A stretch of DNA of 42,968 nt from a virus. The DNA lies in the IMG/VR virus record IMGVR_UViG_3300047163_000028, positions 1 to 42,968 of that record; one strand, 5' to 3'. The translations under genes and the position numbers were made by a program. Shown one piece after another: positions 128-29,840 of this stretch. The first letter of the stretch is position 1, and every line of letters begins with the position of its first letter. Below the pieces are notes generated by a model. The model saw only the letters and a program-made list of their open reading frames with translations, ran no database searches and was not told where the DNA came from.

Positions 128-377
128 CTTCTTGTTTTTCTTTTGCTGGACTTTCTGCAGCTTCTTCAGCTGCACTTTCTTTAGATTCTCCAACATCTAT
201 ACTAGGGTACTTCTTTTTAACAGCTGCACGTACTGCAGCAGCTTCTGGCTTACCAGAACTGCGAGCTAGTGCATCTCTAGCATGAGCAGCGTCATGGATA
301 GGGTAGGCTTTTCTGGCCGGGAATACAAAGTCACTGGGTTTTAATCTTCGTCTTGCTTCGGCTGTTAGTATGCTCAT
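87..377 (-). CDS. Small conserved phage protein, DUF6582-like
   Basis: ORF track 87..407. Start moved to the ATG at 377 (MSILTAEARRRLKPSDFVFP...), which forms an ATGA stop/start overlap with the upstream endolysin gene. FPARKAYPIHDAAHARDALAR resembles the uncharacterised DUF6582 family, from memory. Confidence 0.55.
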   Translation of the reverse strand: MSILTAEARRRLKPSDFVFPARKAYPIHDAAHARDALARSSGKPEAAAVRAAVKKKYPSIDVGESKESAAEEAAESPAKEKQEVKDGQESIRKMYK

Positions 378-1108
378 TTTATTACCACACTTGATCCGGC
401 AGTCCATAGATCGCCTTGGCCATACATTTGACTATTAATTCTTACGATTCCGTTACCAAGTTCTGCAACTATAGGATAAGTTAAACCACCAAATTGGCTG
501 GGTACTAATACACCTTTGGCTTGAGCTGGGTTATAGGGGCCACCATTACGATATAAGTGCCATGGTCCAGTTGTAGGAGGTAAGTATATAGTTTTACCAG
601 TTGGTGCAGGTGGAGGAGTCACGGGTGTTGGTGCAGGGGCAGGTGCTGGTGTTGTTCCAGGAGTCAGAGGACGGTACCATCCCATACATGGCCTAAACTT
701 CCAGGCATAATGCGTAATATTAGCGAAAGAACCTTCGCTTGGGGAGTTTTGCTGAAGTAAATTATATCCGTTTGAATCCGCAGAATCACATATTCCTACA
801 TGTCCGTAAGGATTGTCAAAAGAGTTTGCGTATCCTGCGGCTGGAGTAGCATCAAATACCATAATGTCACCTTGGACCGGGACTTGATTAGGATTGTTAT
901 GGTCATTAGAAATCCATTGTAGATACTGGTTACCTTTACCAGCTAGTTCTCTTGCACCATTAACAGGAGGTATTATAGTTGTCCAGTTAACACCTGGGAA
1001 TAAGTATTCTATGTAAGCTTTGGAGTTATTAACTATTAAAGAAACACATTCACCGTCTCCGACTCGTATATCAGGTGTTAGTACACTTGTTCTAAACTGT
1101 TGGTACAT
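374..1108 (-). CDS. Endolysin: N-terminal CHAP amidase/peptidase domain, Pro/Thr/Ala linker, C-terminal SH3-like wall-binding domain
   Basis: The GDGECVSLIVN (Cys) and NPYGHVGICD (His) pair is typical of CHAP. It is followed by the linker TPGTTPAPAPAPTPVTPPPAPTG and a Gly/Trp-rich C-terminal domain. The gene lies in the lysis cassette. Confidence 0.8.
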   Translation of the reverse strand: MYQQFRTSVLTPDIRVGDGECVSLIVNNSKAYIEYLFPGVNWTTIIPPVNGARELAGKGNQYLQWISNDHNNPNQVPVQGDIMVFDATPAAGYANSFDNPYGHVGICDSADSNGYNLLQQNSPSEGSFANITHYAWKFRPCMGWYRPLTPGTTPAPAPAPTPVTPPPAPTGKTIYLPPTTGPWHLYRNGGPYNPAQAKGVLVPSQFGGLTYPIVAELGNGIVRINSQMYGQGDLWTAGSSVVIK

Positions 1109-2218: not shown

Positions 2219-3772
2219 CTAAATATATGAACTTTCAGCCCTTACTATTGTGTACGCATTAGAGTCATCACCGTAACCCCTAAAACCTGCACCTGTTGAA
2301 CCAGACGGTTGTACTATGGCATAGTAAAAGGATTGGCTAGAAACACTAATTCTTTTCTGGATATTCAAAGTTACTAATCGAGCAACAGACGAGTTAAAGT
2401 AAAATCTTTGCGCAAGATCCGCATCACTCACCGCATTGTTTGTTTGAGAAAGACCCCAGTAGCCATCTGTACCTGTGGCTACAATCGCTAACTGACCTCG
2501 TAAATTCCAAGGTCCCGTAGGAACTGAAATAGCTATTGAACCCTGATTTACCCATGAACTCCCAGACGCACTGGCAGTAGAGCCAGTACCAAACGAATAT
2601 TTAACTTCCCAGTTAGCAGCATCAGGGTTGAAGCCAAACGGGACTTTCTCGGTAGAGTAGAACGGATTAGTGAGAGTTTGGTTGGGGATAGTATTGCTGT
2701 TGCCACTATAAATCTTGATCGTAGTAGTAGGATTTACGTAACTTACACTAGTAATAATTCCAAGTTCTATTGCATTATAAGGATTAGCTGCCTGAGTGTT
2801 AAGAGCTCCACCACTAGCGGTCAGGGTGTTAGCGTTAGAAGTAGCGTCCGTCCATACACCATTAAATTGGTAGAGAGCAACTAAATTAGTTTCCGTACCC
2901 ACCAAATTAATTGCCATGTTGGATTGAATTGCTGATTGAGTTTGAGCAACTGACCATACTCTTACCTCTGACATATAACCGTTGAAATAAGTATTAGTTG
3001 GTGTGGCAGCGGCGGCTCCTATCCTTAAATCTACAGAAGCTTGGGTAAGAGAAGTTGCAGCCGATAATGGAGAATGAGTTGCTACAGCAACTCCATTCAG
3101 ATAGATCTGTCCAGTTTTACTGCTGGTTGAACTAACTACTCCAGCTATGTGTGTCCAGCGATTCAATTGGACCATTTCACTAGATGAAAAATTAGTGAAA
3201 CTTGAGCCAGTTGCATATTCTATCATCACGGTACCATCGGACTGAACCCTGAAATCCCAACCTCCACTCGTACCTGCAGCATCTGACCTGTTGATAACCC
3301 AGCCGCCGGTGGCGGTGCCATAACTTAAAGGAAAGACCCAAGATTCGCATGTAAAGGCTCCAGTAAATGTTATACCTGCTGGCGAAGCATGTGTGGCATA
3401 TTGTGAAGAAGCAGAAGCGAAAGAAGCCGCTTGGGTTGGTGGAACCGTTCCACGAGTAACTTTAAGCCGCATACCATTGGAAAGAACAGAAGTTAAATCA
3501 GCAGCAGCTGTTACAGTAAATTCTTTATTACCATTATTAGCACCATAAGTTAATGCATTAGAAATTGCGTTCCAGCCGCTATTAGCGGTAGCTGCAAAAG
3601 CAGTTTGAGGAAGTGAACCGGCCACTATCTTAGAACCATTCATGCTGGCTATGTTTGCATCATCTAAACTACCATTTAAAACAGCTAGAATAGCGTTGAT
3701 TGGATTATCTATGTCTTCAGCTAATGCTGTATTGCCGTCGCTTGGAAGTGTAACTGTTACTATGGGAGCCAT
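2219..3772 (-). CDS. Tail fibre / receptor-binding protein with a LamG (concanavalin A-like lectin) domain
   Basis: Central segment FTCESWVFP...WDFRVQSDGTV...NRWTHIAGVV...IYLNGV...FNGYMSEVRVWS matches the Laminin_G_3-type pattern. It is the last large gene before lysis. Confidence 0.65.
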   Translation of the reverse strand: MAPIVTVTLPSDGNTALAEDIDNPINAILAVLNGSLDDANIASMNGSKIVAGSLPQTAFAATANSGWNAISNALTYGANNGNKEFTVTAAADLTSVLSNGMRLKVTRGTVPPTQAASFASASSQYATHASPAGITFTGAFTCESWVFPLSYGTATGGWVINRSDAAGTSGGWDFRVQSDGTVMIEYATGSSFTNFSSSEMVQLNRWTHIAGVVSSTSSKTGQIYLNGVAVATHSPLSAATSLTQASVDLRIGAAAATPTNTYFNGYMSEVRVWSVAQTQSAIQSNMAINLVGTETNLVALYQFNGVWTDATSNANTLTASGGALNTQAANPYNAIELGIITSVSYVNPTTTIKIYSGNSNTIPNQTLTNPFYSTEKVPFGFNPDAANWEVKYSFGTGSTASASGSSWVNQGSIAISVPTGPWNLRGQLAIVATGTDGYWGLSQTNNAVSDADLAQRFYFNSSVARLVTLNIQKRISVSSQSFYYAIVQPSGSTGAGFRGYGDDSNAYTIVRAESSYI

Positions 3773-3804: not shown

Positions 3805-6800
3805 CTACTGAGTTGGATTGTTCAACGCATTGTCGATTCGAGCATTGTTAATACGAGTTTGTAATGAATTACCGCTTAACGGTATTTTTAAACTCGTCCA
3901 TTTCTGATCCCAGGCATACTTAGAATGTTGGCCAAAATTGTCTGGGTAATTTTTAGGAACTGCGTCAACTTTTAGATTCCATTCATGTGCAACCCTACCA
4001 GCTTTATTATATTGTCCATTTGCTACTAATGCTTGAACTTGTTTTTTAATAAGACTACTTTGTTTAAGCTGAGGATTGAATGTGTTATATAGTCTACTCA
4101 CCACTGCTGTTTGTTGACCTTCTGGGGAATTAGGGTTATTTTTAATCTTTAGACCAGCAATATTTCCTATAGCTGTAGCTGTATTTTGAGCGCCAGATAA
4201 TGTTTTGCCAGTCTGAACTAATGGAATAGGAGCGACTTCACCGGCTATATTAGCTGCCACTTTTTTACCTGATTGGGGATTACCTTGCTTATCATTGCCA
4301 TATATAGGATTGCCATAGAAATCTTTGTTAGCAACTCCTTGGTTTACTAAACTTGGAACAGCGGCTAATCTAGCTGTGGCGTAATCCGATACCGCAGTTT
4401 TAACACCCGATTCTTTAGCATTAGCCCCTAGACCTGTAATAGCTGGGGCAATTAATTTACCAAACTCAGATATATAGGTTGCAGGAAGTTCTGCTATTTG
4501 AGGTGTGCCATTAGGACTTGACTTAGAAGGGGCACCACGACTACTTAATGGCACACCAGGGCTTAATATCTGTTGCAAAAATGCACTTCCAACTGCGTGT
4601 GGATCTTTAAGATTCAGTTTGCCGCTAGAAGCTAGCGCTATCATACCTGGCATTGCAAATACCAAACTTTTGCCTATAACAAGTTGTCTAGCTAATCTAG
4701 CCTCTGGACCTTGTTTGGTTAGATTTAGGGCGTTTCCAAGAGTTCTTATCTTACCTTCAGTAAAATCAGTAGCTAGTACAACTCTAGAGAGCTTCTGAGC
4801 AGTTTTAGGTGGTAATCCGTCTACTAATCTATTTATACCTCCAAGATTGTTCACACCCTTCGCAATGCTACGTCCATAAGCTAATTGTTCAGGTGTAGGA
4901 TTGTGGAAATCCATACCTGGGAATTTAGATTCAAGCTTTTGTTTAGTAATCATTAACTTGACATTAGGAATCTGACGTTTAAATACTAGGTCGTGAACAG
5001 CTCGGATTGGGTTAAGAGAAGAGTTTTTAGCCTTGTCCAAAGTATTTAAATTAGCATCTCCCAGAATCTCTTTTGGTGACAAGGTAACACCAGTTTTACG
5101 ACTGAAGTCTAAGACCCCTGTCCTAGCATGATCTGCCAATACTGCATCATTAACTTTTTTACTGCCAGTGGCTGCAATAGTCTTTAGATTATTCGCTAAA
5201 GTTTCAATTGGATGAGCGTAAGTCCTAGGGTTCATTATTTGTTGGCCAGCCGCACTGCCAGCAGTTGTCAGAGAGTGGAAGAATCCACCTCCAAGTTTGG
5301 CATACTTAAGTCCACGGTTAGCTGCGTCGTAAGCTTTGGTCACTCCTTGAGATTCTTCAGCTGGAGCGTGTTTATTATATCCTTCTTCTAAGCCATCAGT
5401 CAGTGATATACCACGACCACCAGCTATTTTAAGATTGCCCAGACTATTACCTTTAGCGTCAATGCCAGCATGTATAACTTGACCAGGATGGGCTTCTGCA
5501 AGCCCTTTAGCGAGTGCAGCACTACCATGCTGATTAGAGGCTCGATCAATAGCTGAGTGCATATCATCTAAAATGCTAGGATTAGTTCTCACATAATGTT
5601 CGCCATTTGGCCCAACCCATGCATCTCTCTGGGCTAAGTTGTTAAAGACACGCTGATAGGCATATTTAGGCTTACCATTCTTAATGGCATATTGTTTCAT
5701 TTCAGGATTTTTACCTGCTTCTACAGGTTTACCGTTCTTGTCCACTAAAGTAGACTCATGTGGCAGATAATTTTGTCTCTCACCTAAATCTTCTTGACCT
5801 GGAATTGAACGAGCTGTAGCTAAATGAGTCTTGGTGAAATCTTGCCAAGCCTTAACGGTATTCCTAAACTGTTGTGGATTATCTGCAGTTTGGGCGATTC
5901 GCTCAACTCTAGCAGCTGCAGCTTTAGGACTTATAGCAGTTTCTCCAGGTGATTCAATGCCTTCCAATAATTTAGCGTCCCTAGCACTCATATCTTTAGA
6001 AACTGCCGCCAATGGAGCGTGGAAATCCTGATATTTTTGAGCTACAAAGTTTCGATTTAATATAGCCTGGGTCTTATTACCTTCTGGGACCGTAGGTGCC
6101 TGATCTATTAACGATTTAGTCTGAATGGGGAGATCTTTATTGGCAATGGGTACTTCATTTAAACCCATTTCTTTAGCAGCTTGTAGGCGGTGAGCACCGT
6201 CTTGAACGAAGGTTTGGCCACTGACATTATTGGTAACGAGGGGTTCAATTGGTTTACCGGCAGCAATGTCAGCCTTATACTTTTCTACTTGGTTTCGGTC
6301 TAATGGCATACCGGTAATACTATCTCGCCCACCTTTAAGCTTATTGACGGGTGCAGTAGTGGCTGTAGGCTCAACCGGAGTGTCTCCCTTTATTTTATTT
6401 ATAACTTCTCCAGCTACCTTACCGGCAACTTTTCCTGCCAGCTCTCCGCCCACTCCAAATAAATAACCTGCTCCAGCAGCATTGGCTACCGCTTTGGGGT
6501 TAGGGTTACTAGGATTATCTTGAACTGTAGTAGCTGCATTATAAGCAGCAGCAGATTTAGCTGTGCTGCCTGTGACTGCATTTTTAACCGCTCCCACTAC
6601 TTTACTAACAATAGGAGTTTTAGCAGTATCGCTAATTGCACTTTCCACCGCATCCTTAGCAGCTGATCCCCCAGACGCTAAAGATAATGTTCCTGCAACT
6701 TCTGAACCGACCCGATTAACATTAGTGTCTTGAGTCTTCTGTATTTGTTGCTGTTGTTGTTTAACGTGAGCGTTGATTTGAGACTGAAACGCACCCTTAG

Positions 6801-7281
6801 CTACTAATTGATTGACAGTATTTTTAACATTAGTTTGATCGCTAGCAGTTGGGATTGACTTGATAGTTTTATCTACTATAGGAGTGATTTTACCGCTTTT
6901 TAAGTTCTGATTATATTGATTATTGGATTGGTTAGCTTGTGGAGAGCCATGAATAACTTGAGACACCAACGCACCAGGACTATGAACAATCTCACTGCCT
7001 AATTGCTTAACCTGTTTAATTGGACCATTATTAATATCTTTGGCTAAACCTTCGACAGGCTGTGCGACAGTATTAACCACATCCATAGTGGCATTCCTAA
7101 TGTGGCCCAATAAACCTGGTTTCTGAGGAGCAACTTTAGCAACTTTAGCTTGCTGTGATTGCGGCTGTGGCCGTTGTTGAGGTGCTGGAATATTAACAGG
7201 AGCCACAAAACTCCTAGAACCCCTGCTTACACTGGGGGAAGGTGATGATGATGAACTCCCTGGAGCAGTAAACGTCTGCAT
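3805..7281 (-). CDS. Giant virion-module protein with a Q/A/S/N-rich disordered N-terminus and a ParB/Srx-like domain (polyvalent or internal-virion protein candidate)
   Basis: 1158-aa ORF. Residues about 318-385 (nt 6127..6330), KPIEPLVTNNVSGQTFVQDGAHRLQAAKEMGLNEVPI, resemble the ParB N-terminal/Srx fold. I recognised no tape-measure-like features. Confidence 0.6.
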   Translation of the reverse strand: MQTFTAPGSSSSSPSPSVSRGSRSFVAPVNIPAPQQRPQPQSQQAKVAKVAPQKPGLLGHIRNATMDVVNTVAQPVEGLAKDINNGPIKQVKQLGSEIVHSPGALVSQVIHGSPQANQSNNQYNQNLKSGKITPIVDKTIKSIPTASDQTNVKNTVNQLVAKGAFQSQINAHVKQQQQQIQKTQDTNVNRVGSEVAGTLSLASGGSAAKDAVESAISDTAKTPIVSKVVGAVKNAVTGSTAKSAAAYNAATTVQDNPSNPNPKAVANAAGAGYLFGVGGELAGKVAGKVAGEVINKIKGDTPVEPTATTAPVNKLKGGRDSITGMPLDRNQVEKYKADIAAGKPIEPLVTNNVSGQTFVQDGAHRLQAAKEMGLNEVPIANKDLPIQTKSLIDQAPTVPEGNKTQAILNRNFVAQKYQDFHAPLAAVSKDMSARDAKLLEGIESPGETAISPKAAAARVERIAQTADNPQQFRNTVKAWQDFTKTHLATARSIPGQEDLGERQNYLPHESTLVDKNGKPVEAGKNPEMKQYAIKNGKPKYAYQRVFNNLAQRDAWVGPNGEHYVRTNPSILDDMHSAIDRASNQHGSAALAKGLAEAHPGQVIHAGIDAKGNSLGNLKIAGGRGISLTDGLEEGYNKHAPAEESQGVTKAYDAANRGLKYAKLGGGFFHSLTTAGSAAGQQIMNPRTYAHPIETLANNLKTIAATGSKKVNDAVLADHARTGVLDFSRKTGVTLSPKEILGDANLNTLDKAKNSSLNPIRAVHDLVFKRQIPNVKLMITKQKLESKFPGMDFHNPTPEQLAYGRSIAKGVNNLGGINRLVDGLPPKTAQKLSRVVLATDFTEGKIRTLGNALNLTKQGPEARLARQLVIGKSLVFAMPGMIALASSGKLNLKDPHAVGSAFLQQILSPGVPLSSRGAPSKSSPNGTPQIAELPATYISEFGKLIAPAITGLGANAKESGVKTAVSDYATARLAAVPSLVNQGVANKDFYGNPIYGNDKQGNPQSGKKVAANIAGEVAPIPLVQTGKTLSGAQNTATAIGNIAGLKIKNNPNSPEGQQTAVVSRLYNTFNPQLKQSSLIKKQVQALVANGQYNKAGRVAHEWNLKVDAVPKNYPDNFGQHSKYAWDQKWTSLKIPLSGNSLQTRINNARIDNALNNPTQ

Positions 7282-7291
7282 ACATTACTCC

Positions 7292-8023
7292 TTAATACAT
7301 TACTGGTGCGGCTTTACCCACGTAGTCTTGTGCATGCGTTTGATTAATATAATTACTGAACATTGAGTTAAACGTAGAAGCAGATCCACCACCATTAACC
7401 CAAGAGTTTCTAGCAGCATTAAATGTAGCCGGTGATACTTTACCATCTTTGCCGGTTAACCCTTTAAGATAATTATTGGCTCCCGTTTGAGCTGCAGCTG
7501 CAGCTTCAGCAGCTGTTGGTCCCTTAGATGCGGCAGCGGCTCGATTAAGAGCACCTTCACTAGCGGTAGCAGCTATTGATTCCTGCTGTCGCCTCTCAGC
7601 AGCAGCTTCTGAAGCTAGGTTCTGATTATATGTATCAAGAGCAGATTGCTCAGTCTTTTGTTCATTGAGAGCGTTTGTATTAGCTGTAGAGTTAAGATTG
7701 GCTTTACTGGTATTAAGACTGTCTCTAGTGGCAGCTATAGTTTGCTGTAACTTAGCTAGAGCTGGTAAATAAGTAGCACCCGTATAAGAAGCTTCTTGGC
7801 TAGGAGAAAACCCAGAAAAATACATTCCTTTGTTATTGGCTGTTTGCTCAATATTACCGAAAGCATTAGTTTTAGCCTGATCTAAGCCAGATACTTGAGC
7901 TGAACCTGATGATTCATTATTAGCAATCTGGGTATCCAGTTGCTGTTGTTGGGGTGCTTGAGCAGCACTAAATTGTGCAACTAAGTTTTGGAGTGATTGT
8001 ACTGCTGGCGCTGAAGGGGGCAT
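7292..8023 (-). CDS. Hypothetical Q/A/N-rich virion-module protein
   Basis: 243-aa ORF, co-oriented, low-complexity coiled-coil-like composition. Confidence 0.6.
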   Translation of the reverse strand: MPPSAPAVQSLQNLVAQFSAAQAPQQQQLDTQIANNESSGSAQVSGLDQAKTNAFGNIEQTANNKGMYFSGFSPSQEASYTGATYLPALAKLQQTIAATRDSLNTSKANLNSTANTNALNEQKTEQSALDTYNQNLASEAAAERRQQESIAATASEGALNRAAAASKGPTAAEAAAAAQTGANNYLKGLTGKDGKVSPATFNAARNSWVNGGGSASTFNSMFSNYINQTHAQDYVGKAAPVMY

Positions 8024-9684: not shown

Positions 9685-10236
9685 ATGGAAGTTCGCAAAC
9701 CGACTAAAGAAGAAAAACAAGCATACCACAAAGCCTATCATCGTGAACATGCCGAAAAAATTAGGAAAAGAGCAAATGACTGGTATTACGCTAATAAAGA
9801 ACGTGCTTCAAAAAAAGCCAAAGAATATAGAGAGTTGAAAGGAGACGAACTTAAAGCTAAAAAATTAGCTTATTATAAAACTAATAGAGAAAAAATACGA
9901 GCACAACAAAATGCAAATCATGACCCATTAAAAGCCTATGCCCGTGTTAAGGCTTGGAGAAAAGCTAACCCAGAGAAATATAAAAAACTATATACCCGTG
10001 ATATGAATAAAAGACGAGCACTTAAACTAGCTACTCAAGTTGGCGAAGTTGATTATGAGGCTATAATAACTCGAGATAATGGAGACTGTGGTATCTGTAA
10101 ACTACCGATAGAAGGGAAGTTTGAGTACGACCATATTATCCCTTTGTCTAAAAACGGCCCTCATATCACAGAGAACCTACAGGTAGCGCATCCTAGCTGT
10201 AACCGTAAAAAGTCATCTAAACTTACTATACAATAA
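9685..10236 (+). CDS. HNH endonuclease (free-standing, opposite strand inside the tail module)
   Basis: C-terminal CGICKLPIEGKFEYDHIIPLSKNGPHITENLQVAHPSCNRKK is a textbook HNH motif. The N-terminus is a basic repeat region (YHKAYHREHAEKIRKR...). Confidence 0.85.
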   Translation: MEVRKPTKEEKQAYHKAYHREHAEKIRKRANDWYYANKERASKKAKEYRELKGDELKAKKLAYYKTNREKIRAQQNANHDPLKAYARVKAWRKANPEKYKKLYTRDMNKRRALKLATQVGEVDYEAIITRDNGDCGICKLPIEGKFEYDHIIPLSKNGPHITENLQVAHPSCNRKKSSKLTIQ

Positions 10237-10241
10237 ATTTG

Positions 10242-12251
10242 TCACTTTTGCCTACCTATTTTATAGATGGATATATATCCATATAATTCTACTGGAGTTT
10301 CTACTCCTTTTCTTTCAAACCTATATTGAATATGTTTACCACGGCCAGACATTCCAGCTAATCCATCAACTTGTCCAACTTTGCCATACTTAGAACCATC
10401 ACCCCATACAAAAGCACCCCATTTAGCACCCCCTCCTGCGACAATATACTCACGCATATCGGGGTTATTGGCAAAATCTTGGTCTTTACCGACAAGCATA
10501 GTGTAATCAGCGTTGACGGTCCTTATAATGGGTCTGAAACGCTTTATTCGTTTCTTGGCTGAACCACCGCCATAAGTTTGCCCATTACGTCGTCTGTAGG
10601 CATAGGTCTTATAGTTCGTCCAATATTTCCAGTCAATAGCTTTACCAAGATCTGAATACTGAGTTTCTCCGAAATAGACTTGTCCAACTAAAGAACTAAA
10701 CTCAACAAGTTGCTGTTGATCAAGATACAAATATGTAGCGCCTATAACTGGGTGGCCTGTATCCATGAACCATTGTTTAAGAGTTAAGTCAAATAAAAGC
10801 ATCTGGTTATTGAATGTACTAGGAGTTTTAGGGTAGTAAACTCTAATCTGGTTTTTATAAACATTAATGCGTATTTTACTTTTGTCTGTAACAGCTGAAA
10901 GTTCAGGTTGCATCTTATCAGACAATAATGTGTCAGAAGCACCGTTCCACATATAAAGGTTGCCATCATCAGCTATAAAGTAAACTCCGTTGTGGTCTGC
11001 ACAAATAGCTTCTTGGCTAACAGCCCCTTTGGTGCCAACAGCTTCTTTTCTAGTAAATGTGGATATGTCGGAACCAGATATAACGTGTTTAGTAGTATGG
11101 GTGAAAATGGTGAGTTTGTCTTGAAACACTACCCAGCCCGTCATATGATCAGGGGACTTAGGGGTAGGTACATAGAAAAAGTTTGTTGATGTGTAACTAG
11201 TAAAATTAGACAGATCAGAGAAATCAACCCTTGTAACATCTGTCATAAAGAACAAACGGTTTTGCCATGAAATAACATTAGTGGGAGCATTAATGGCCGG
11301 GACTCCTGGAATATTAACTGGCGTTGGAACAGTATTAAAATCAGTCCATCTAGCAGGATTTACACCATTTACCCATATACTAAAATCATTCACCTGAGTA
11401 AATCTTACATACGGTGCACTACTTGTTAAACTACTATCTACTGCAGTAGGCGTAGGAGAAGTCAAAGAAGTGGAATAAACAGAACCTAACTGAGCAAATA
11501 AAATTAAATTGTTTGTGTTACTTGAAGGATAGCGCAAACCATAACCTTTAACACCACCTGCGGTAGAAAGATATGTTTTATATCTAGCACTATAACCTAA
11601 TGGTGTACTTGAGGTTAACACATTGTTAGTGAAAACTACCTGTAAGGCACCAGAGGCGGCAGTTTTATGAAGATTATATGGACCAGTACCATTATCTTGG
11701 ACATACGCCACCCACCAGTATTGAGTACCACTAACTAAACTAGGAGCATCTATAAAGCGAGTGGTTAAGTAAGCGTAAGAAGAAGATATGGTATTGGAAT
11801 AAATAGAACTCTCAGCAAGTAACGTGCCGGGTTTGCCCCCTGTATCTGTGTAAACCTGAACTAAAACATGCCCTGTGGCTCCTGCCACCTTTTCTATCTC
11901 AATATCTAAACGACCCAATACCCCATTGGCGTTAGGAGTAAAGGGTTGAGCAAATACCACTGTGTTTGTAATGGGAATATCGCCAGTTGCCGTAGCAACA
12001 TTCTGAACATTTAAAGTTTCACCCACAGGATTAGACAAAACACTGGCACCCATTCTGGTTCGGTTAGCTACTCTTGAATCACCCGTATTACGAGCATACA
12101 TACGAGAATTTATAGTGAAAGGGGTTTCACCGGCCGACATAATTTCATCAGGATCACGTAAGTTAAGACCAGCTAGAGAATAGTTCTCGTCTACAGCTGG
12201 GTTAGCGAAAGGAGCATTGGGTCGATGGGGAGCAGTAAAAGCTGAGTTCAT
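10242..12251 (-). CDS. Large tail structural protein, function unassigned
   Basis: 669-aa ORF, co-oriented, beta-rich with many W/Y/G residues. No motif recognised with confidence. Confidence 0.6.
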   Translation of the reverse strand: MNSAFTAPHRPNAPFANPAVDENYSLAGLNLRDPDEIMSAGETPFTINSRMYARNTGDSRVANRTRMGASVLSNPVGETLNVQNVATATGDIPITNTVVFAQPFTPNANGVLGRLDIEIEKVAGATGHVLVQVYTDTGGKPGTLLAESSIYSNTISSSYAYLTTRFIDAPSLVSGTQYWWVAYVQDNGTGPYNLHKTAASGALQVVFTNNVLTSSTPLGYSARYKTYLSTAGGVKGYGLRYPSSNTNNLILFAQLGSVYSTSLTSPTPTAVDSSLTSSAPYVRFTQVNDFSIWVNGVNPARWTDFNTVPTPVNIPGVPAINAPTNVISWQNRLFFMTDVTRVDFSDLSNFTSYTSTNFFYVPTPKSPDHMTGWVVFQDKLTIFTHTTKHVISGSDISTFTRKEAVGTKGAVSQEAICADHNGVYFIADDGNLYMWNGASDTLLSDKMQPELSAVTDKSKIRINVYKNQIRVYYPKTPSTFNNQMLLFDLTLKQWFMDTGHPVIGATYLYLDQQQLVEFSSLVGQVYFGETQYSDLGKAIDWKYWTNYKTYAYRRRNGQTYGGGSAKKRIKRFRPIIRTVNADYTMLVGKDQDFANNPDMREYIVAGGGAKWGAFVWGDGSKYGKVGQVDGLAGMSGRGKHIQYRFERKGVETPVELYGYISIYKIGRQK

Positions 12252-12254
12252 CTG

Positions 12255-12917
12255 CTATGCCTCCCATGGGCTTGATCTAATACCACCCTTACGTCTATTA
12301 CTTCGCATTATAACTGGGCCAGTTTTAAACTGTCCACGGGCCTCCTGGGCGATAAAAGCAGTTGTTAGTGGTACTAAGTTAGCTAATTCCTGTTGAGCCT
12401 CTGGGTAGTCTTCATTTGTCTGCATACAACGCTCTAGAGCGCCTACTACAACTAGTTCTTGATATTGGTCTGGAAGTTCACATGTATCTGTGGTATTAAC
12501 CATAATATTTGGAACACGTAAGTAATCTATGGCTATTTGGGTGTCAGCTAATAACGGGGCAGAAAATCTCATCTGATTATTAAAATCAGTCCAATTACTC
12601 AGGTAAGCTGGCGTGTAAGTTTGCCAACCGGGCCATGCTTTCATAAAATCAGCCTGTTCCATATGATAGTCTTTAATTGAATATATCTGAGGGCTTACAA
12701 CATTAAGATCTATTAATGTTTGGAAATCATCAGGCATATCTACGGTAGTATCATTAGCGGAAGGATATAAAGTATCAGTTGCTTCCATCATTCTGGTTGC
12801 AGTATTAAAGAATAACTGATTAACAAACCAGTTAGCAGCATCTGTTATTTGGGTTGAATCAAATGAAGTATCGCCTAACTTGCCTCGAACCTTATCTATA
12901 ATATTTTGCAACGTCAC
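12255..12917 (-). CDS. Hypothetical protein, possible head-tail adaptor
   Basis: 220-aa ORF. The N-terminus LQNIIDKVRGKLGDTSFDSTQITDAANW resembles adaptor or neck proteins I recall. This is weak evidence. Confidence 0.5.
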   Translation of the reverse strand: MTLQNIIDKVRGKLGDTSFDSTQITDAANWFVNQLFFNTATRMMEATDTLYPSANDTTVDMPDDFQTLIDLNVVSPQIYSIKDYHMEQADFMKAWPGWQTYTPAYLSNWTDFNNQMRFSAPLLADTQIAIDYLRVPNIMVNTTDTCELPDQYQELVVVGALERCMQTNEDYPEAQQELANLVPLTTAFIAQEARGQFKTGPVIMRSNRRKGGIRSSPWEA

Positions 12918-12919
12918 AA

Positions 12920-13243
12920 TTAGCCGCCAATCTTTCTAGCTTTTAGCAATAGTTGGCCATAAAGAATTTCAAAAGTGGCATCTAGGTAGGTAACTACAAT
13001 ATCACCTTTATAAGAACCAGGAGTAGCCAAATCACCTGTCTGAGGCTGCCAACCGATAATACCGCTCCCAGCATTAATAATAGTGCAGGTTTCATGGCCC
13101 GTGTTGACTTTATTAGAACCTTTGTAAAGATTAAGAGTGACTGTGGTATTAGTTAAAACAACTATACTACCATCATCCCTCGTACAAGTTATCTGATACT
13201 GAGGAGCTGTATTACTTTGTACTACTTTTAATGTTGTTGACAT
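12920..13243 (-). CDS. Small beta-rich tail-module protein (Ig-like guess)
   Basis: 107-aa ORF with a TAATG 1-nt overlap with the upstream 940-aa gene. Confidence 0.6.
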   Translation of the reverse strand: MSTTLKVVQSNTAPQYQITCTRDDGSIVVLTNTTVTLNLYKGSNKVNTGHETCTIINAGSGIIGWQPQTGDLATPGSYKGDIVVTYLDATFEILYGQLLLKARKIGG

Positions 13244-16065
13244 TATAGATTTACCGTTTTATTTCCGCTACTAATATTGGTGTTTTTGCTTGTACTCGCT
13301 ACTGTGTCAGTTTTGACACTTGTACTTACATTATCTAGTTTAACACCACTAGCGACATTTGTAACCTTGTTACTCGTTGACTCTGTAACTGTTTTTAATC
13401 CAGTAGAAACAACAGCCTTGATATTAACAAATAATGGATTAATGTATTTTTTAATTAATGTTCCAGCAAAAGATAAGTTACTACTAAATACTGCATACAT
13501 TTTTTTCATTATCATTCCAGTAAATGTTAGGTTAGCATTTACCGATTTATTATCACTTTTCTTGAAGACACCTATAAAACTAAGGCCACCAGTGAAACTA
13601 ACACCATTGATATGAGATTTTGTAAATGTTCCAATAAAACTAAGACTGCCAGTGAGTTTTCTATTAATTGTTTTAAACAAATTACCTGTAGGTTGAAGAA
13701 TAGCCGTTAAGACATGTTCGGTGATTCTAGTGATAACCCCTACAAACGTAAGCGAAGCAGATAAGTATTTAAGTGGTGTTTTAACAAATGCACCAGTAAA
13801 TGATAGAGAACCAGTGAGAGTTTTAAGATGTTGATGATTGGTTACAAAAGTTCCAACAAATGTTGAAGCCCCTGTTAGTTTACGAGACATCCCCTTAACT
13901 ATATTCCCGGCAAAGACAAGAGAAGCTGACAAAGGGATTAAAGTAGTTTTGTTAATGTTACCGACAAAGCTAAGCCCAGCAGCCAATGATTTCAGATTAA
14001 GTGTCCCAGAGCTCTTAACGGTAGCTATAGATCCAACGAATGTAAGAGCTGCTGTAAAGGTTCTAGCAGTTGACTTAGGTAAACTACCAACAAATGATAA
14101 AGAAGCCGTTAACGAGCGTTTAATAACCCTAAGAATAGTTCCTGTAAATGAAAGTGAAGCGGTTAATGGAAACTTAATAAGTTTAGATATATTACCACTA
14201 AAACTTAAACTTGCAGTCAAAGTAGTGAAATGTTGATGGAATGCGCTTAATAAGCCACTAAACGAGAGAGAGCCGCTTAAAGTTCTAAACACTGATCGGC
14301 TAAGTACACCCGTGAAACCCAGAGTGGCAATCAATCCTTTCTCCAATTGTTTTAGCAACGAGCCGCTTAAAGTTAGTCCAGCAGTAAAGATCTTGCCAGG
14401 CAATTTTATAATTAACCCAGTGAATGTAAGAACACCTGGCAGTAACCTTGATGGCGATTTAATTAACGAGCCCACAAAGGTTAAGGATGGGGTAAAAGAT
14501 CTACTAATAAGTCTGGACATACTGCCCACAAAGTTTAGAGTAGCTGTTAACGGATAACTAGTTGTTTTACTCATAACACCCACAAAACTGAGTCCTGCGT
14601 TGAGAGATTGTGTATACATAGTCCCAGAAGTGTTATGTATATAAGTTAGCAAACCACTGAATGTAAGAGATGCAGTTAGAGAATGAGCCACTGATCTAAT
14701 AAAATTGCCTGCAAACGCAAGACTTGCTGGTAACATTCTACTAGGTGTTTTAGTAAATGCACCTGTACTAGAAATACCCGCAGAAAAACTTTGTTTATGA
14801 GGAATAACCGTATCAGATATTGCAAGAAGAAGGCTCACTCCTGTAAAGGTTGTCCCTGACGTAAAAGTGCCAGCATAAGTTCCTGTTGCAGCTACTACTT
14901 GGTCTTCTGTATAACTATCTAGAAAACCTGCGTTGGTATTAAGGTGGCCATAACCAGTGCCAGCAACAAAAGTCCCAGTGTTCCGGCCACCTGCTGCTGC
15001 AATTAATATATCATTAGTATTAGCTGTAACACCTGAACCCGAAGTAACAGAAGTAACAGCAGCCTGGAATTGACTGACAGCTACATCTATAGCTGAAGAT
15101 GTAGCTACGCCAGACAACTCAAGTACATGTAAATTCATCACTATGCTAACTGAGTTAGTCACCGTAATAGTATCTGCTCCCCCAGTGCCACCATATGCTA
15201 TCCAGACAGAATAACCAACTGCGTCTGTAATATTGCTACCATTAATTATGGGCACGTAAGTATTGCCAAGGCTGTCACTTACTGTCATAGTCCCAAAGGA
15301 TGTTGAATATTGTTGAAAAACTATAACAACGATAGCATTACTAGTCGCTTTATTATTTGGCAAAGCAGTAGCAACTGTAGTAGCACCTGAAGCGTTTGAG
15401 GCAAAAGTTCTTTGCACAACAGCAAGCTTTGGTGATAAAACAGCCTGAATAGCTTCAAATGCCTTAGACGTAGTCCAACTAAAGTTCATTGAATAACCTT
15501 GAGCGTTAGACTGAACGTAAGCATTGCCAAACGTAGAAAGAGTTGAAGGTGTGTTATAACCTACAGTCCAAAAAGTAGGCTGAGTGATTGTGCCCATTGT
15601 ACTTGTTGCACCAACCCCACCCATGAACATATCACCAGGGTTGTAAGTGGAAATGGCAGGGATAGCAGAACTACTTGTTGTTGCAGTAGATGAAAGACTC
15701 GACATAGCCTCAAACATATCTGAGTAAGTAGAAGCGTTAGGTATATTACTATATTCAAATATGTCTATGGCTAAAGATGCACCAGATAGAGTTGCAGTTG
15801 CGGTTTTAGATTGAGAAGCACCTGCAACTAGAAGATACAAGTAGAGCATTGAGCCAGTAGTTCTGGGTTGACTAATAATTAATTGGAAAGAGTTGCCGTT
15901 GCCATCTTTTACAGAGGTTAAAGCTGTACCATTAGTAACATTCTGAACCCAAGCAACGATTGCGTTGCCTTGGACTGGTGTAGCACCAGTAAAAGTAGCT
16001 GATTGAGCACTAGTCGCATAAGCTCCACCAGTAGCTTTTTGGACGAATCCTACGATATTAGACAT
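13243..16065 (-). CDS. Fibre/spike-like protein: two related N-terminal ~200-aa domains followed by about 24 tandem ~18-aa repeats
   Basis: 940-aa ORF. Repeats of the type SLTASLSFVGSLPKSTAR / PLTASLSFTGTILRVIKR span residues about 425-876. Confidence 0.7.
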   Translation of the reverse strand: MSNIVGFVQKATGGAYATSAQSATFTGATPVQGNAIVAWVQNVTNGTALTSVKDGNGNSFQLIISQPRTTGSMLYLYLLVAGASQSKTATATLSGASLAIDIFEYSNIPNASTYSDMFEAMSSLSSTATTSSSAIPAISTYNPGDMFMGGVGATSTMGTITQPTFWTVGYNTPSTLSTFGNAYVQSNAQGYSMNFSWTTSKAFEAIQAVLSPKLAVVQRTFASNASGATTVATALPNNKATSNAIVVIVFQQYSTSFGTMTVSDSLGNTYVPIINGSNITDAVGYSVWIAYGGTGGADTITVTNSVSIVMNLHVLELSGVATSSAIDVAVSQFQAAVTSVTSGSGVTANTNDILIAAAGGRNTGTFVAGTGYGHLNTNAGFLDSYTEDQVVAATGTYAGTFTSGTTFTGVSLLLAISDTVIPHKQSFSAGISSTGAFTKTPSRMLPASLAFAGNFIRSVAHSLTASLTFSGLLTYIHNTSGTMYTQSLNAGLSFVGVMSKTTSYPLTATLNFVGSMSRLISRSFTPSLTFVGSLIKSPSRLLPGVLTFTGLIIKLPGKIFTAGLTLSGSLLKQLEKGLIATLGFTGVLSRSVFRTLSGSLSFSGLLSAFHQHFTTLTASLSFSGNISKLIKFPLTASLSFTGTILRVIKRSLTASLSFVGSLPKSTARTFTAALTFVGSIATVKSSGTLNLKSLAAGLSFVGNINKTTLIPLSASLVFAGNIVKGMSRKLTGASTFVGTFVTNHQHLKTLTGSLSFTGAFVKTPLKYLSASLTFVGVITRITEHVLTAILQPTGNLFKTINRKLTGSLSFIGTFTKSHINGVSFTGGLSFIGVFKKSDNKSVNANLTFTGMIMKKMYAVFSSNLSFAGTLIKKYINPLFVNIKAVVSTGLKTVTESTSNKVTNVASGVKLDNVSTSVKTDTVASTSKNTNISSGNKTVNL
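13438..14793 (-). repeat. Coding tandem repeat region (about 24 units of 18-24 codons), degenerate at nucleotide level
   Basis: Units counted by eye from the translation. Consensus is x-L-T-A-S-L-S/T-F-x-G-x-L/I-x-K-x-x-x-R. Confidence 0.75.
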
Positions 16066-18704: not shown

Positions 18705-19538
18705 TTAAGCGATCTGGTGAGTAAATATACCAGTTCCAGTTTGTGATGGGATGAAAGCATCGTAGTAACGACGACCTTCAGCTACAGCACCGTGAATACC
18801 TTGAACATCCGTAAGCACTCGTATCATCTCGAACTTACCAGCATATACCAAACATTTGTTATAGCAGAATAGATAACCTGTATTAGCAGGTAGATAAGAG
18901 GTTGGTACTACTACTATAGTGTTACCAGCAACTTGTCCAATGATACCTTTTTTCATGTCAGCGTAAGCAGTATCACACTGTTTAACGAAGTTCTGATCAA
19001 GCATCAAAAGGTTATAGCTTGAAGCTGGCATAAATACTACACGGCCTTCTGTAGGTACTAGAGCGTCTGTTAGAACAGCTTGAGCAGCTAAGAATTTAGT
19101 GAAAGCATTAGCAGCAGTTAAAGCAGCTGTTGCACTCTGAGAGTTAGCAATAGCATAAGCTTGTAGGGTTGTTAATCGGTACTTATCAACAGTAGGTACT
19201 GAAACTTCACGAATCTGTCTTTTAACAGCTTTGTTAGCTTCAGTTACCATCATGCTGTCTTCCAAGTTACCTTGATCAACAGTGAAGGTAAATGCCTTAT
19301 CTTGCGATAGAATAAATGTTTCCTGTCCATCGCCAAGTTCAACTAGAGAACCAAATCGGTTAGATCCAGCACGTACATAGTTAGATTCAGCAACAACATT
19401 AACATTGTAAATTGTTACGGAGTTTTTTCCGTTGAAATCTAGTCGGATGCCCTTATTGATAACTAAATCAGTTTTAGAGTCTAGGTAGAATCTTTCATCG
19501 ATAGTATCAAGGGTAGCCTGAGCATAGTTTTGTGTCAT
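18705..19538 (-). CDS. Major capsid protein (candidate)
   Basis: 277-aa ORF directly after the scaffold-like gene and upstream of a strong terminator. The call rests on order and composition. Confidence 0.65.
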   Translation of the reverse strand: MTQNYAQATLDTIDERFYLDSKTDLVINKGIRLDFNGKNSVTIYNVNVVAESNYVRAGSNRFGSLVELGDGQETFILSQDKAFTFTVDQGNLEDSMMVTEANKAVKRQIREVSVPTVDKYRLTTLQAYAIANSQSATAALTAANAFTKFLAAQAVLTDALVPTEGRVVFMPASSYNLLMLDQNFVKQCDTAYADMKKGIIGQVAGNTIVVVPTSYLPANTGYLFCYNKCLVYAGKFEMIRVLTDVQGIHGAVAEGRRYYDAFIPSQTGTGIFTHQIA

Positions 19539-20873: not shown

Positions 20874-20882
20874 ATTATATCA
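20874..20882 (-). promoter_or_regulatory. Extended -10 box TGATATAAT (its TGA is the portal stop codon)
   Basis: The reverse strand reads ttcaTGATATAATtagattataaaaaaggagcaactaATG. Confidence 0.45.
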
Positions 20883-22898
20883 TGAATTAGCGGTTTGCAT
20901 TCCAGCTGGTGGAGCTGCTGGAGTTGGTTGAGGTGGTAAATTAGGTTCAGGCTGGTTATCGGCGTTAGTCAGCGGATTAAGTAAGTCTGCTTGTTTAGCG
21001 CCATGCTGGATAGCATTGGTTTGTTCTGCTATTTCATGCATTGGATCAGGCTGTAACCCAAAGGCTGTTTCAATTTGAGCTTGGTCAAACTCACTAGCAT
21101 ACTGGAAGATAGTTGCCATACCTTGGAGTTTAGCTCGTTCAACATCCATAGCAAGTCGCTTGTCATCTTCTGTAGGCCCTGGGGGAGCTTCTGGTGCTAG
21201 CAACTTATTAAATTCTTCATCGGTGAGAGTTTCATCAATATGTTGCATTTCCCAACGCTTAATTTCAACAGGGTCAAATATACCTTTAGGATCGTCTGCA
21301 AGTATTTGGAATATTTGATTATCTTTTTGTCCCATTTCAATTTGTCTTTTACGAGCTGTAGTAGCAAGTTCTACTTGAGGGTGCCAGGGACCAGTGAATT
21401 TCCATCTATCATATTCATCAAAAGCCGTGCCGTTAGGGGTATTTATAGGCACTGAAGTTGGTTCATCTAAGAATATTTGAGCCATCTTCCATAATATGTC
21501 ACCAAGTTGAGCGTATCCTTCATTTTGTAGGTTATCAATTTTAGTGCTAAATCTATTCTGGGAAGTGGCTGAATTATCGACAACCTCAGTAGCTGTAGTC
21601 CGTCTTGGGTCTGCTGCTGGAGACAACGCTTCGTCAGCACCTGTAGCGCTACGCATCTGAGCGATAACTCTATCCTTCTTTTGGTCTAAGTTGCCAGCAA
21701 TTTCAGCAATCGGTAGTGAACTAATAGCACCTTTAGGTATAGGATAAACGGCACCTGGAATAGTCTCAATTTCTGTAGCTAAATCAGCAAACTGTGGATC
21801 AATTTGGTACATTGGTGTGTTCTGGTAAGCTGTATTGTCAATATCCATGGCTTCATAGTCATTGAGGTCTTCGCCACGATCAGCAATAATAGCGATTTCA
21901 CCTTCACCTAGCATCAAAGATGTATCTACGTAATCCCTAAGTACCGCAAATGGTATAAATGGGTCAATAGCATCTAGGGTTTGTTTACTTTGAATAATCT
22001 TTTGGCCAGTAGGATCAGTTGGGTCAGGGACTGGGACTATCCTAGTAAGTTTTTCCATTTGATAAGGAATATCTTTCTGATAAATAATCTTTTGGCCGTT
22101 AGCCATTTCAATTACTTTGCCAGATATTAAATCATACATAAGAACGACAAATACTTGTTGAGATATGGCTTCATTAACTGGTAATGTAGTGCCATTAAAT
22201 TGATCCTTAAACTGTTTATCCATTTGCTTAGCATCTGCTGGAGTGGCTGGGCCAACATCTGTAAGATCGTATTTAAGCACCATTTTGTTAGTAGCTGCAT
22301 CGTAGACCTTTTCTTGCTCCATCAATGCCTTATTACCTAAATAAGCAAAGCCAGCATAAGTACAGTCGGCCATCGACGTAGCTTGAGGATTGAAAAACCA
22401 ATCTCTTAATGGAATGTTATCAATTTTAGGTTTACCGTCTACCCAGGTAATATGCAAAATACCAGTACCATACTGGAGCATCTCTCGCACCCATTCCTGG
22501 TTGCGCATTCCCATGTTGTTGCACTCAAGCCAATATGCTAGCAATGAATTTAAGGTGTCTGTATTTTCAGTTTGTTCTTCATTAGTTCGTTTGAAATGGA
22601 AAGCAATATCACCACCAGCAATTTCAGCTACTAATAGTTCGATAATTGTAAAAACTTCTGGGATAACAGGGTCAGCTATGCCTTCGTAGTGACGATCAAC
22701 TCGTTGTCGCTTATAAATTCTGAAGTATTTGTCCCAATAGTTTCTATAACTAACGTCTATATACCGCTTAGCGGTTATATACATCTTCTGGGCAGTTGCA
22801 AAATCTAAATTACTGCTTGGCGGCAGCTCGGTGCTCACGCCGTGCTTGCTTGCGTCTGCTGAGGGCTTCTCTATTACTGGTGGTTTTTGTTTGGCCAT
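20880..22898 (-). CDS. Portal protein
   Basis: 672-aa ORF immediately downstream of terL, with typical portal size and position. The start is uncertain: ATG 22898 overlaps terL by 89 nt, and the next in-frame ATG is at 22784. Confidence 0.7.
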   Translation of the reverse strand: MAKQKPPVIEKPSADASKHGVSTELPPSSNLDFATAQKMYITAKRYIDVSYRNYWDKYFRIYKRQRVDRHYEGIADPVIPEVFTIIELLVAEIAGGDIAFHFKRTNEEQTENTDTLNSLLAYWLECNNMGMRNQEWVREMLQYGTGILHITWVDGKPKIDNIPLRDWFFNPQATSMADCTYAGFAYLGNKALMEQEKVYDAATNKMVLKYDLTDVGPATPADAKQMDKQFKDQFNGTTLPVNEAISQQVFVVLMYDLISGKVIEMANGQKIIYQKDIPYQMEKLTRIVPVPDPTDPTGQKIIQSKQTLDAIDPFIPFAVLRDYVDTSLMLGEGEIAIIADRGEDLNDYEAMDIDNTAYQNTPMYQIDPQFADLATEIETIPGAVYPIPKGAISSLPIAEIAGNLDQKKDRVIAQMRSATGADEALSPAADPRRTTATEVVDNSATSQNRFSTKIDNLQNEGYAQLGDILWKMAQIFLDEPTSVPINTPNGTAFDEYDRWKFTGPWHPQVELATTARKRQIEMGQKDNQIFQILADDPKGIFDPVEIKRWEMQHIDETLTDEEFNKLLAPEAPPGPTEDDKRLAMDVERAKLQGMATIFQYASEFDQAQIETAFGLQPDPMHEIAEQTNAIQHGAKQADLLNPLTNADNQPEPNLPPQPTPAAPPAGMQTANS

Positions 22899-28213: not shown

Positions 28214-28219
28214 AAGCTA

Positions 28220-28228
28220 ATTATAGCA
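28220..28228 (-). promoter_or_regulatory. Extended -10 box TGCTATAAT, 6 nt upstream of the ATG at 28213 (leaderless-type arrangement)
   Basis: The reverse strand reads cacggTGCTATAATtagcttATG. There is no Shine-Dalgarno sequence. Confidence 0.45.
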
Positions 28229-28363
28229 CCGTGAGCAATAAGCAATAAGCGTTATATACTTTTAATTAAGTTGTTAAGGTGTAATTACCTTGTTTCCTAT
28301 CTATAATTATACACCTATAACAGAGGTGAAGCAAGTAAATAATAAAGATTATTATAAATATGC

Positions 28364-28718: not shown

Positions 28719-28740
28719 ATTAAGCTGAGGAGCTAACGCA

Positions 28741-29817: not shown

Positions 29818-29840
29818 TTAAAGAACAGGAGTAAATAATC

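Follow-up and report, generated by a model that had tools for sequence, protein, structure and literature searches.

A ParB/Srx-fold module carried by a predicted large internal virion protein of an SU10-adaptor-type podophage

ParB/sulfiredoxin (Srx) domains have been described in virion-linked polyvalent proteins of phages (Iyer, Burroughs, Anand, de Souza & Aravind 2017, J Bacteriol; PMC5512222), and P1 DdrB, which bears a ParB-like domain, is packaged (PMC5512222). The DdrB-like type of ParB domain is defined by an extra helix with a conserved Tyr, inserted between the terminal helix and the terminal strand (PMC5512222). In phi24B, the LPD38 protein gp47 (2811 aa) is abundant in virions and has been proposed to be an ejection protein (bioRxiv 10.64898/2026.04.10.717836). 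In SU10, the last part of the structural operon, behind the nozzle and needle genes, encodes the ejection proteins gp20-24, among them the 1473-aa gp24. In PTXU04, gp25 is essential for infection. A 2025 survey of ParB-fold proteins defines Box I as the C-motif helix/loop and Box II as the P-motif GxxR, reports that an R-to-A change in GxxR abolishes nucleoside triphosphate (NTP) binding, and describes ParB-fold fusions to phage receptor-binding-protein domains that bind adenosine triphosphate (ATP; PMC12704722). Here, we analyzed a 1158-aa protein encoded on the minus strand of the IMG/VR virus record IMGVR_UViG_3300047163_000028, whose 42,968 nucleotides constitute the window referred to throughout. 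An earlier note made from the letters alone, hereafter the sequence-only reading, had proposed that this protein is a candidate injected polyvalent protein with a ParB/Srx-like domain.

Our data are best explained by a large internal virion (ejection-type) 'polyvalent' protein of an SU10-adaptor-type podophage, the ParB/Srx domain of which would act as an injected NTP-binding effector of the enzyme type, and we give this reading a probability of roughly 0.6. It draws on four observations made here: the fold of the domain, the conservation of its motifs, the membership of the protein in a family, and the position of its gene. The ATG-to-stop open reading frame (ORF) is the largest of the window, as the sequence-only reading had stated, and encodes a protein of 122 kDa with an isoelectric point (pI) of 9.8 and zero Cys. 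This protein would comprise three parts, a conserved, basic, low-complexity N-terminal region (residues 1-297), an effector slot (residues 308-381), in which the ParB/Srx domain is predicted to sit on flexible linkers, and a helical body (residues 400-1158). All features are collected in Table 1.

The sequence-only reading had placed the ParB/Srx fold at residues 318-385 (nt 6127-6330) and had quoted from it a peptide (KPIEPLV...NEVPI) that corresponds to residues 343-379 (nt 6145-6255). The full-length query gave no ParB match in Pfam, and residues 300-420, when scanned alone, reached Pfam ParB_N at E=0.016 (15.7 bits against a cutoff of 26.3), with weak matches to SbnI and TIGR00180, both of the same superfamily. 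A local iterated profile then detected the module in 27 of the 151 representatives of the HMMER-found family, at varied positions and on varied scaffolds. The module alignment and profile were made from 25 copies, ~35% identical to the query. Searched against the PDB, this profile matched 26 sequences, all with the ParB/Srx fold, including SbnI (1.2e-9), Noc (8e-7), Myxococcus ParB (1.7e-6), Spo0J (5.5e-4), and sulfiredoxin (3.4e-3); the ParB match is thus significant only with the family profile, and not with the single query sequence. Taken individually, 20 of the 25 copies matched Pfam ParB_N (best 1.9e-7), and matches to GmrSD_N, ParBc_2, and DUF6551 were also obtained among the copies. 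In the AlphaFold2 model, the core (residues 308-381) has a predicted local distance difference test score (pLDDT) of 90-95, and the order of secondary-structure elements is E-E-H-H-E-E-H-E. Each of the 50 best Foldseek matches of this model in the PDB has the ParB/Srx fold: sulfiredoxin, ParB, Noc, SbnI, SerK, pNOB8 ParB-N, KorB, and PadC, the best being Srx (E=2.5e-6; template modeling (TM) score 0.72 on target). The earlier proposal of a ParB/Srx fold was therefore borne out by both a profile match and a structural match, and we consider residues 308-381, on sequence and model evidence, as a confirmed, genuine ParB/Srx-fold domain.

The motifs of the fold are strongly conserved. P347, D361, G362, H364, R365, A368, and G373 are invariant across the 25 copies, and V332, Y335, I339, and G342 of Box I are near-invariant. 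Box II, with the family consensus DGKHRLxA, aligns to AGERRWRA of Noc and to DGVHRY of SbnI; D361 ends a strand just before G-x-H-R, and may or may not correspond to the Asp/Asn that closes strand 2 in DdrB-like domains (PMC5512222). In model numbering, 3 residues separate helix 66-75 from strand 79-84, and the extra Tyr-bearing helix of the DdrB type is absent. Unlike the P1 DdrB-like ParB, the module lacks this Tyr helix and matches ParB_N-type models, and no DdrB-type model.

The best sequence and structure matches of the module are with SbnI, SerK, and sulfiredoxin, with which it shares the D-G-x-H-R Box II, the Box I helix-loop, an acidic residue in the first beta-hairpin region, and the format of a small stand-alone domain without helix-turn-helix (HTH). 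It differs from SerK and SbnI in that their C-terminal domain is absent, the match being limited to N-domain residues ~5-89. The NCBIfam SerK/SbnI equivalog NF033589 scored 16.9 bits against a cutoff of 350, with only N-domain residues 24-78 of 254 aligned, and SerK/SbnI membership was rejected for want of a full-length equivalog match including the C-terminal kinase domain. Sulfiredoxin membership was rejected because the catalytic Cys is absent; its position in GGCHR is A363 in the query, and Ala or Lys in the module family. With the ParB, Noc, and KorB clamps the module shares the N-domain fold, Box I, and the GxxRxxA P-motif, but not the remainder of the clamp architecture. Box III is absent, no column being conserved after the last (..PV) strand in the 25-copy alignment, and the catalytic Glu of GERR is replaced by A363 (Lys in most copies). 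No HTH was found in the full-length Pfam scan (TIGR00180 at 13.1 bits, cutoff 58.45), and a regular-expression search for the ParA-binding motif [LFI]G[KR]G[LFI] gave no match. Membership in the ParB clamps was rejected on these grounds, together with the absence of a dimerization domain. There is likewise no parA-like gene among the ORFs scanned, which were part of the window's ORFs. Judged from sequence and model, the module is a minimal, Srx-sized domain of the DGxHR type, closest to the enzyme-type, ATP-using members SbnI, SerK, and Srx. Because these are its best matches, because it has DGxHR, and because Box III, HTH, and ParA-binding motif are missing, it looks like an enzyme-type NTP binder rather than a DNA-sliding clamp gated by cytidine triphosphate (CTP).

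To define the family of the whole protein, several searches were combined. A word-indexed homolog search returned the query itself and one distant protein, P0002, which is encoded in a syntenic tail module and matches residues 301-406 only (43% identity). When 52 full-length sequences were aligned and used instead, the same type of search gave nothing but the self match; the word index was probably overwhelmed by the low-complexity N-terminus. HMMER, run exhaustively over 1.84 billion representatives, recovered 185 relatives. IMG/VR yielded 3 contigs only, and representative bacterial genomes no relative. The whole protein has no match in Pfam, PHROGs, PDB sequences, or GenBank phages (tblastn). 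Of the 151 representatives, 133 have the body; in every one of these a variable N-terminal region of 140-1030 aa comes first, and in 58 a shared extension of ~300 aa follows the body. This body family was previously unannotated.

The body has no Pfam, PHROG, or PDB-sequence match, and its AlphaFold2 model, calculated from a 60-sequence alignment, is mostly helical (pLDDT 88.4; predicted TM score (pTM) 0.85). A Foldseek search of the PDB with this model gave no fold match (best E=0.024, TM ~0.1) and no T7 core proteins. In BFVD, 38 matches were obtained at E<=1e-3, the best of which (2e-13 to 1e-7, TM 0.4-0.5) lie in the later portions of long phage proteins. Among the annotations of these proteins are large polyvalent protein associated domain-containing, ART-PolyVal, RelA/SpoT, helicase, DNA methylase, nuclease, and LPD38, and some of the proteins come from cultured phages, Cellulophaga phi19:3 and Escherichia PTXU04. 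Weaker matches are to the 'internal virion protein' of Vibrio phage VP2 (1.7e-4) and to an 'internal virion protein D' (3e-3). The remaining ~770 residues, for which the sequence-only reading could name no match, thus form a large family with structural matches to polyvalent proteins. Homology of the body to SU10 gp20-24 or to T7 gp15/16 was considered and rejected, as no match was found. The most hydrophobic helix of the body (residues 867-885) is a candidate membrane-active segment, and a 19-aa window with a Kyte-Doolittle mean of at least 1.6 occurs in 70 of the 118 full-length family members. Near the C-terminal end, residues 979-1143 align to the C-terminal half of LPD38 and to the tail of P0138 and P0139, two proteins that carry the same ParB module together with a genuine Pfam LPD38 domain (4e-25 and 2e-19); the query itself reaches no Pfam LPD model.

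The N-terminal region had been described as ~310 residues of low complexity. Its composition is indeed biased in residues 1-300, which are rich in P/S/Q, then Q/N/S, then A/G/V/K, but the region is conserved: residues 38-298 match P0093, P0097, and P0119 at E~1e-24 to 1e-26, and 91 N-terminal flanks form one similarity cluster. A strict glycine zipper was rejected as a universal feature of these flanks, being found in 32 of 119, and is a weak feature.

We then compared the contents of the effector slot among relatives. The ParB module is present in ~10 of the 133 body-bearing representatives, and the closest relatives, P0003-P0020, which are up to 61% identical in the body, are without it; the module is also found on LPD38 proteins and other scaffolds. 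From this distribution, the ParB/Srx module is predicted to be optional cargo. Within the body family, Pfam detects ART-PolyVal (2.4e-15), GGDEF (4e-12), and DUF3990, and most members have no detectable domain. ART-PolyVal and DUF3990 were counted per protein, without position, and the placement in the slot is known for the GGDEF of P0046. In this protein, GGDEF occupies residues 500-599, just upstream of the body (762-1465), which is the ParB slot; this domain is of the diguanylate-cyclase type and could be a virion-delivered nucleotide cyclase. Because GGDEF fills the ParB slot in P0046, and ART-PolyVal or DUF3990 occurs in other relatives, the slot appears to be a swappable early-effector position. 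The query has one recognizable effector domain, ParB/Srx, in addition to the last ~170 aa related to LPD38 proteins.

This organization is close to that of the polyvalent proteins described in 2017: a large phage protein whose gene lies in the late region, beside virion genes; a ParB/Srx domain with its active-site Arg; domains that are shuffled between orthologs; a similar body structure with an LPD38-related C-terminal end; and, by analogy, a predicted delivery with the DNA. It is unlike them in having one recognizable effector domain and no metallopeptidase or MuF anchor detectable with Pfam. The proposal that this is a polyvalent-type protein gains support from the BFVD matches of the body, from the relatives with ART-PolyVal, GGDEF, or DUF3990, from the co-occurrence of ParB and LPD38 in P0138 and P0139, and from the alignment of residues 979-1143 (hhalign 95%). 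Contrary to what the sequence-only reading had held, the presence of a ParB/Srx domain in a giant protein of the structural module is not unusual for this class of proteins, since such domains were described in virion-linked polyvalent proteins in 2017 (PMC5512222). Like phi24B gp47, the query is the largest protein of a podophage, is encoded among late genes, and has a C-terminal region related to the LPD38-bearing P0138 and P0139, both of which lie in the same syntenic slot as the query. By contrast with gp47, it is less than half the size and has no Pfam LPD match and no LPD1, LPD5, or MuF-C, and there is no direct sequence match from the query to phi24B or to any GenBank phage.

The position of the gene was examined in related loci. 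A recurrent order, consisting of adaptor, ~670-aa protein, small ORFs, ~250-aa protein, large protein, fiber, and lysis genes, was found around P0002, P0003, and P0138; the locus of P0044 (L003), a protein with both ParB_N and the body, has the same order with no adaptor detected. The synteny thus extends, adaptor included, to the loci L001, L005, and L006. P0138 lies in the identical syntenic slot after an SU10-type adaptor. Proteins of 228-260 aa are encoded directly upstream of the large protein in L001, L003, L005, and L006, and in every relative examined a counterpart of the 243-aa gene accompanies that of the large protein in synteny. ORFs of 643-675 aa are found in three of these loci: in L005 and L006 they follow the adaptor directly, and in L003 the ORF lies two genes downstream of a Gp10_C protein. 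A Laminin_G_3 protein occupies the same position in L005, and in L007 it is encoded two genes downstream of P0140. In the window, four small ORFs separate the 669-aa protein from the 1158-aa protein in the late operon. This gene order parallels that of SU10, where the ejection proteins come after the nozzle and needle genes. The sequence-only reading had noted that the gene sits where a tape measure or an internal virion protein would be. The slot is indeed a conserved one within the virion module, and the internal virion part of this statement stood, while the tape measure part did not, the portal and adaptor being those of a podovirus. With its SU10-like portal and adaptor, the operon has a podovirus layout.

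Likenesses with the podovirus ejection proteins extend beyond gene order. As for T7 gp16, SU10 gp20-24, P22 gp7/16/20, and the N4 virion RNA polymerase (vRNAP), a large gene follows the genes at the adaptor/nozzle position and precedes the fiber; the protein is basic and helical, with a hydrophobic helix; and the conserved body bears a variable enzymatic domain, for which the T7 gp16 transglycosylase and the ART and metallopeptidase (MPTase) domains on N4-like vRNAPs are parallels. It differs in that there is no T7 or SU10 sequence or fold match, only weak fold matches to 'internal virion proteins', and in that the accessory domain is ParB/Srx and not a cell-wall hydrolase.

Under the ejection-type reading, the protein would be packaged in the head with the DNA and would leave through the tail when the phage infects. 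Precedents for this reading are phi24B gp47, P1 DdrB, and PTXU04 gp25. The helical body and the hydrophobic helix within it may then help to form or line a path across the envelope, a conduit role suggested by its basic charge (pI 9.8) and by helix 867-885, and the ParB/Srx module would reach the cytoplasm at the first moment of infection. There, it would bind an NTP through Box I and the GxxR P-motif, the two motifs being present in the sequence. It might act as an NTP-dependent phosphotransferase or NTPase, or as an NTP-regulated DNA nickase, and not as a CTP-gated DNA-sliding clamp, with host DNA, host defense, or signaling nucleotides as possible targets.

Several points weigh against this interpretation. 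The query alone falls short of the Pfam ParB_N threshold, and at position 363 it has Ala where most copies have Lys. The bound NTP and the catalytic activity of ParB-fold domains are unreadable from sequence (PMC12704722). The Foldseek matches of the body come with modest TM scores (0.3-0.5) and a large root-mean-square deviation, and there is no detectable homology to T7 gp14-16 (Foldseek against the PDB) or to SU10 gp20-24 (family hidden Markov model (HMM)). With a single recognizable effector domain, the strict sense of 'polyvalent', which implies several, is borderline. The sequence family is wholly metagenomic: no member was found among 50,697 GenBank phage records, and a tblastn search of these with the family consensus returned none even at E<=0.01. 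Finally, the endolysins of relatives, with LysM, glucosaminidase, or amidase domains, hint at Gram-positive hosts, and such a host, if so, would not directly fit the model of a trans-periplasmic conduit.

The main rival explanation, which we regard as unlikely though deserving serious weight, is that of a purely structural component of the core or ejectosome, with no host effector role, in which the module would hold the leading DNA end or oligomerize as a scaffold of the PadC type. PTXU04 gp25, the structural counterpart of the body, is essential for infection, as expected of a structural protein and not of an accessory anti-defense factor. The protein is also strongly basic, ParB-fold proteins can be scaffolds without switching (PMC12704722), and in most family members no effector domain is detectable in the slot. 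Against this rival, the module is dispensable for the family, being retained in ~10 of 133 body-bearing representatives and missing from P0003-P0020, the closest relatives. The GGDEF in the same slot of P0046 and the ART-PolyVal of another member fit an effector, the NTP-contact residues are invariant, and there is no DNA-binding HTH beside the module. A bolder version of the effector idea is that the module represents a new class of injected NTP-dependent effectors at the tip of the ejection apparatus, acting either in gating or anchoring of the DNA end or in modification or sequestration of nucleotides or immune signals, with the body as a universal delivery chassis; we consider this speculative and rather improbable. 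If true, the injected module would act in a kinase- or sponge-like manner (SerK/SbnI/Srx chemistry) before any phage gene is expressed, and the ~750-aa body would be a previously unrecognized delivery chassis common to the polyvalent proteins of many podophages.

Two other explanations were considered. In one, the protein would be a cytoplasmic, non-packaged late protein, its ParB domain serving in partition, replication start, or marking of the packaging site, in the manner of classical ParB or KorB. Such a role would find a precedent in the fold and P-motif common to the ParB, Noc, and KorB CTP switches, and in the ParB homologs that are common on phages and plasmids, but the module lacks what a partition protein uses: there is no HTH or other DNA-binding domain (TIGR00180 at ~13 bits against 58), no Box III, an Ala (Lys in most copies) in place of the catalytic Glu of GERR, no ParA-binding motif, and no parA detected in the part of the window's ORFs that was scanned. 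As the gene is also translationally coupled within the tail/ejection block and the body to which the module is joined has its homologs among polyvalent and internal virion proteins, we hold this role to be very improbable. We give next to no credence to the other, a tape measure protein of a long-tailed phage, a role that would suit the largest gene of the structural block and an alpha-helical protein with Gly/Ala-rich segments. Portal and adaptor belong to the SU10 podovirus type, none of the 23 structural-block ORFs scanned with PHROG and Pfam matched a tail tube, sheath, or tape-measure protein, the BFVD search gave no tape-measure matches, and the body is modeled as a compact, confident multi-helix globule (pTM 0.85) and not as an extended coiled coil.

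Our results reveal no new principle, ParB domains in virion-linked polyvalent proteins being already known. The newer elements are modest: a distinct family of minimal, non-DdrB ParB modules, and a large unannotated body family with a high-confidence model and without a solved homolog. Together, they provide a compact example of the 'carrier body plus swappable early effector' design in phage polyvalent or internal virion proteins. The body family ties by structure to the essential PTXU04 gp25 and, via LPD38, to the virion-packaged phi24B gp47, and naming it would improve the annotation of many metagenomic podophages. The 75-aa module with its invariant D-G-x-H-R is a tractable system for the role of injected ParB-fold domains, a question raised in 2017, and the GGDEF variant of P0046 hints that nucleotide-signaling enzymes may also be injected.

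Table 1 Features of the 1158-aa protein, its gene, and the surrounding late genes (positions in the window)
Feature	Residues	Position (nt)	Strand	Basis or remark
Whole ORF, predicted large internal virion / polyvalent-type protein	1-1158	3805..7281	(-)	ORF list, translation
Shine-Dalgarno AAGGAG		7288..7293	(-)	7 nt 5' of ATG 7281; overlaps TAA stop of upstream 243-aa gene
N-terminal region	1-297	6391..7281	(-)	basic (pI 10), compositionally biased yet conserved
Glycine-zipper-like segment GELAGKVAGKVAG	279-291	6409-6447	(-)	regular expression; closes N-terminal region
ParB/Srx module core	308-381	6139..6360	(-)	beta-beta-alpha-beta-beta-alpha-beta
Box I (C-motif helix + loop) VEKYKADIAAGKPIEP	332-347	6241..6288	(-)	aligns with Noc and SbnI Box I region
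Box II / P-motif DGAHRLQA	361-368	6178..6201	(-)	GxxR(xxA) phosphate-binding motif, SerK/SbnI/Srx 'HR' type
Linker	382-399	6085..6138	(-)	unconserved; pLDDT ~50; joins module to body
Body 'Cfam'	400-1158	3808..6084	(-)	~750 aa, mostly alpha-helical, basic (pI 9.8)
Most hydrophobic helix LVIGKSLVFAMPGMIALAS	867-885	4627..4683	(-)	Kyte-Doolittle mean 1.73
LPD38-related segment	979-1143	3853..4347	(-)	hhalign 95%, E=3.9e-8; blastp to P0139 E=1.2e-6
Large terminase		22810-24702	(-)	late operon; PHROG matches
SU10-like portal		20880..22898	(-)	Pfam SU10_portal E=1.2e-9
Major capsid protein (MCP) / major head protein		18705-19538	(-)	late operon; PHROG 3.7e-41
940-aa ORF		13243-16065	(-)	no beta-helix Pfam match; faint 'Permuted GreAB-C' match only
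SU10-type head-to-tail adaptor		12255..12917	(-)	Pfam SU10_adaptor E=3.5e-17; phrog_2941 virion structural protein
669-aa protein, nozzle position		10242..12251	(-)	directly downstream of adaptor; 32% identity over 653 aa to L001 669-aa ORF
Upstream 243-aa gene		7292..8023	(-)	34% identity to L001 260-aa ORF
517-aa Laminin_G_3 protein		2219..3772	(-)	Pfam Laminin_G_3 E=2.5e-23; downstream of 1158-aa gene
Amidase endolysin		374-1108		downstream of Laminin_G_3 gene and small ORFs

The start of the gene deserves comment. The overlap between the Shine-Dalgarno sequence AAGGAG and the TAA stop codon predicts translational coupling of the 243-aa and 1158-aa genes, and the same tight coupling to the upstream gene is found in the relatives L003, L005, and L006. 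The Joint Genome Institute (JGI) gene call begins at Met66 and yields a protein of 1093 aa, the differing stretch being window positions 7087-7281 (-). The M66 start has no good ribosome-binding site, residues 38-65 of the 1158-aa protein are kept in relatives, and the matches of relatives begin at residue 38. Because of the Shine-Dalgarno sequence and the conservation in relatives, we take the upstream ATG at 7281 as the right start, and the deposited JGI protein is probably truncated by 65 aa at its N-terminus.

Two loci, L001 (4824-8988) and L008 (3136-7167), carry the ParB module in a shorter protein of 665-706 aa, followed by a 677-680-aa protein that is unrelated in sequence to the body family. 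Judging by gene content, the slot seems here to have an alternative organization in two genes. A gene split or fusion, in which the 680-aa ORF after P0002 in L001 would be the missing body, was rejected, as the family HMM gives no match. L003 (18636-18869, -) and L005 (20696-20923, -) encode Acb2/Tad1-hairpin proteins (anti-CBASS/Thoeris sponges), and no Acb2/Tad1 homolog was found in the window by tblastn.

An exact 127-bp direct terminal repeat (1-127 = 42842-42968) indicates that the contig is a complete phage genome of ~42.8 kb, either circularly permuted in the assembly or terminally redundant. Around the 1158-aa gene, the 517-aa Laminin_G_3 protein is a probable fiber or receptor-binding protein, and the 940-aa ORF lies at the position of beta-helix/pectate-lyase tailspikes in L005 and L006. 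An HNH endonuclease ORF (9685-10236, +; Pfam HNH 5.7e-13) is located antisense within the minus-strand tail operon, between the genes of 669 and 141 aa; because it is missing from that position in the related loci L001, L005, and L006, it is probably a homing-endonuclease insertion. At ~28000-30000, where the GC content falls to 0.315 and the GC skew flips sign between the leftward late and the rightward early genes, the window probably contains a regulatory or origin region. A 310-aa RecA/UvsX/Sak4-like ATPase (24889-25821, -; PHROG 5.3e-44) adjoins the large terminase at the edge of the late operon, and its first ~35 residues weakly match HNH-associated PHROGs.

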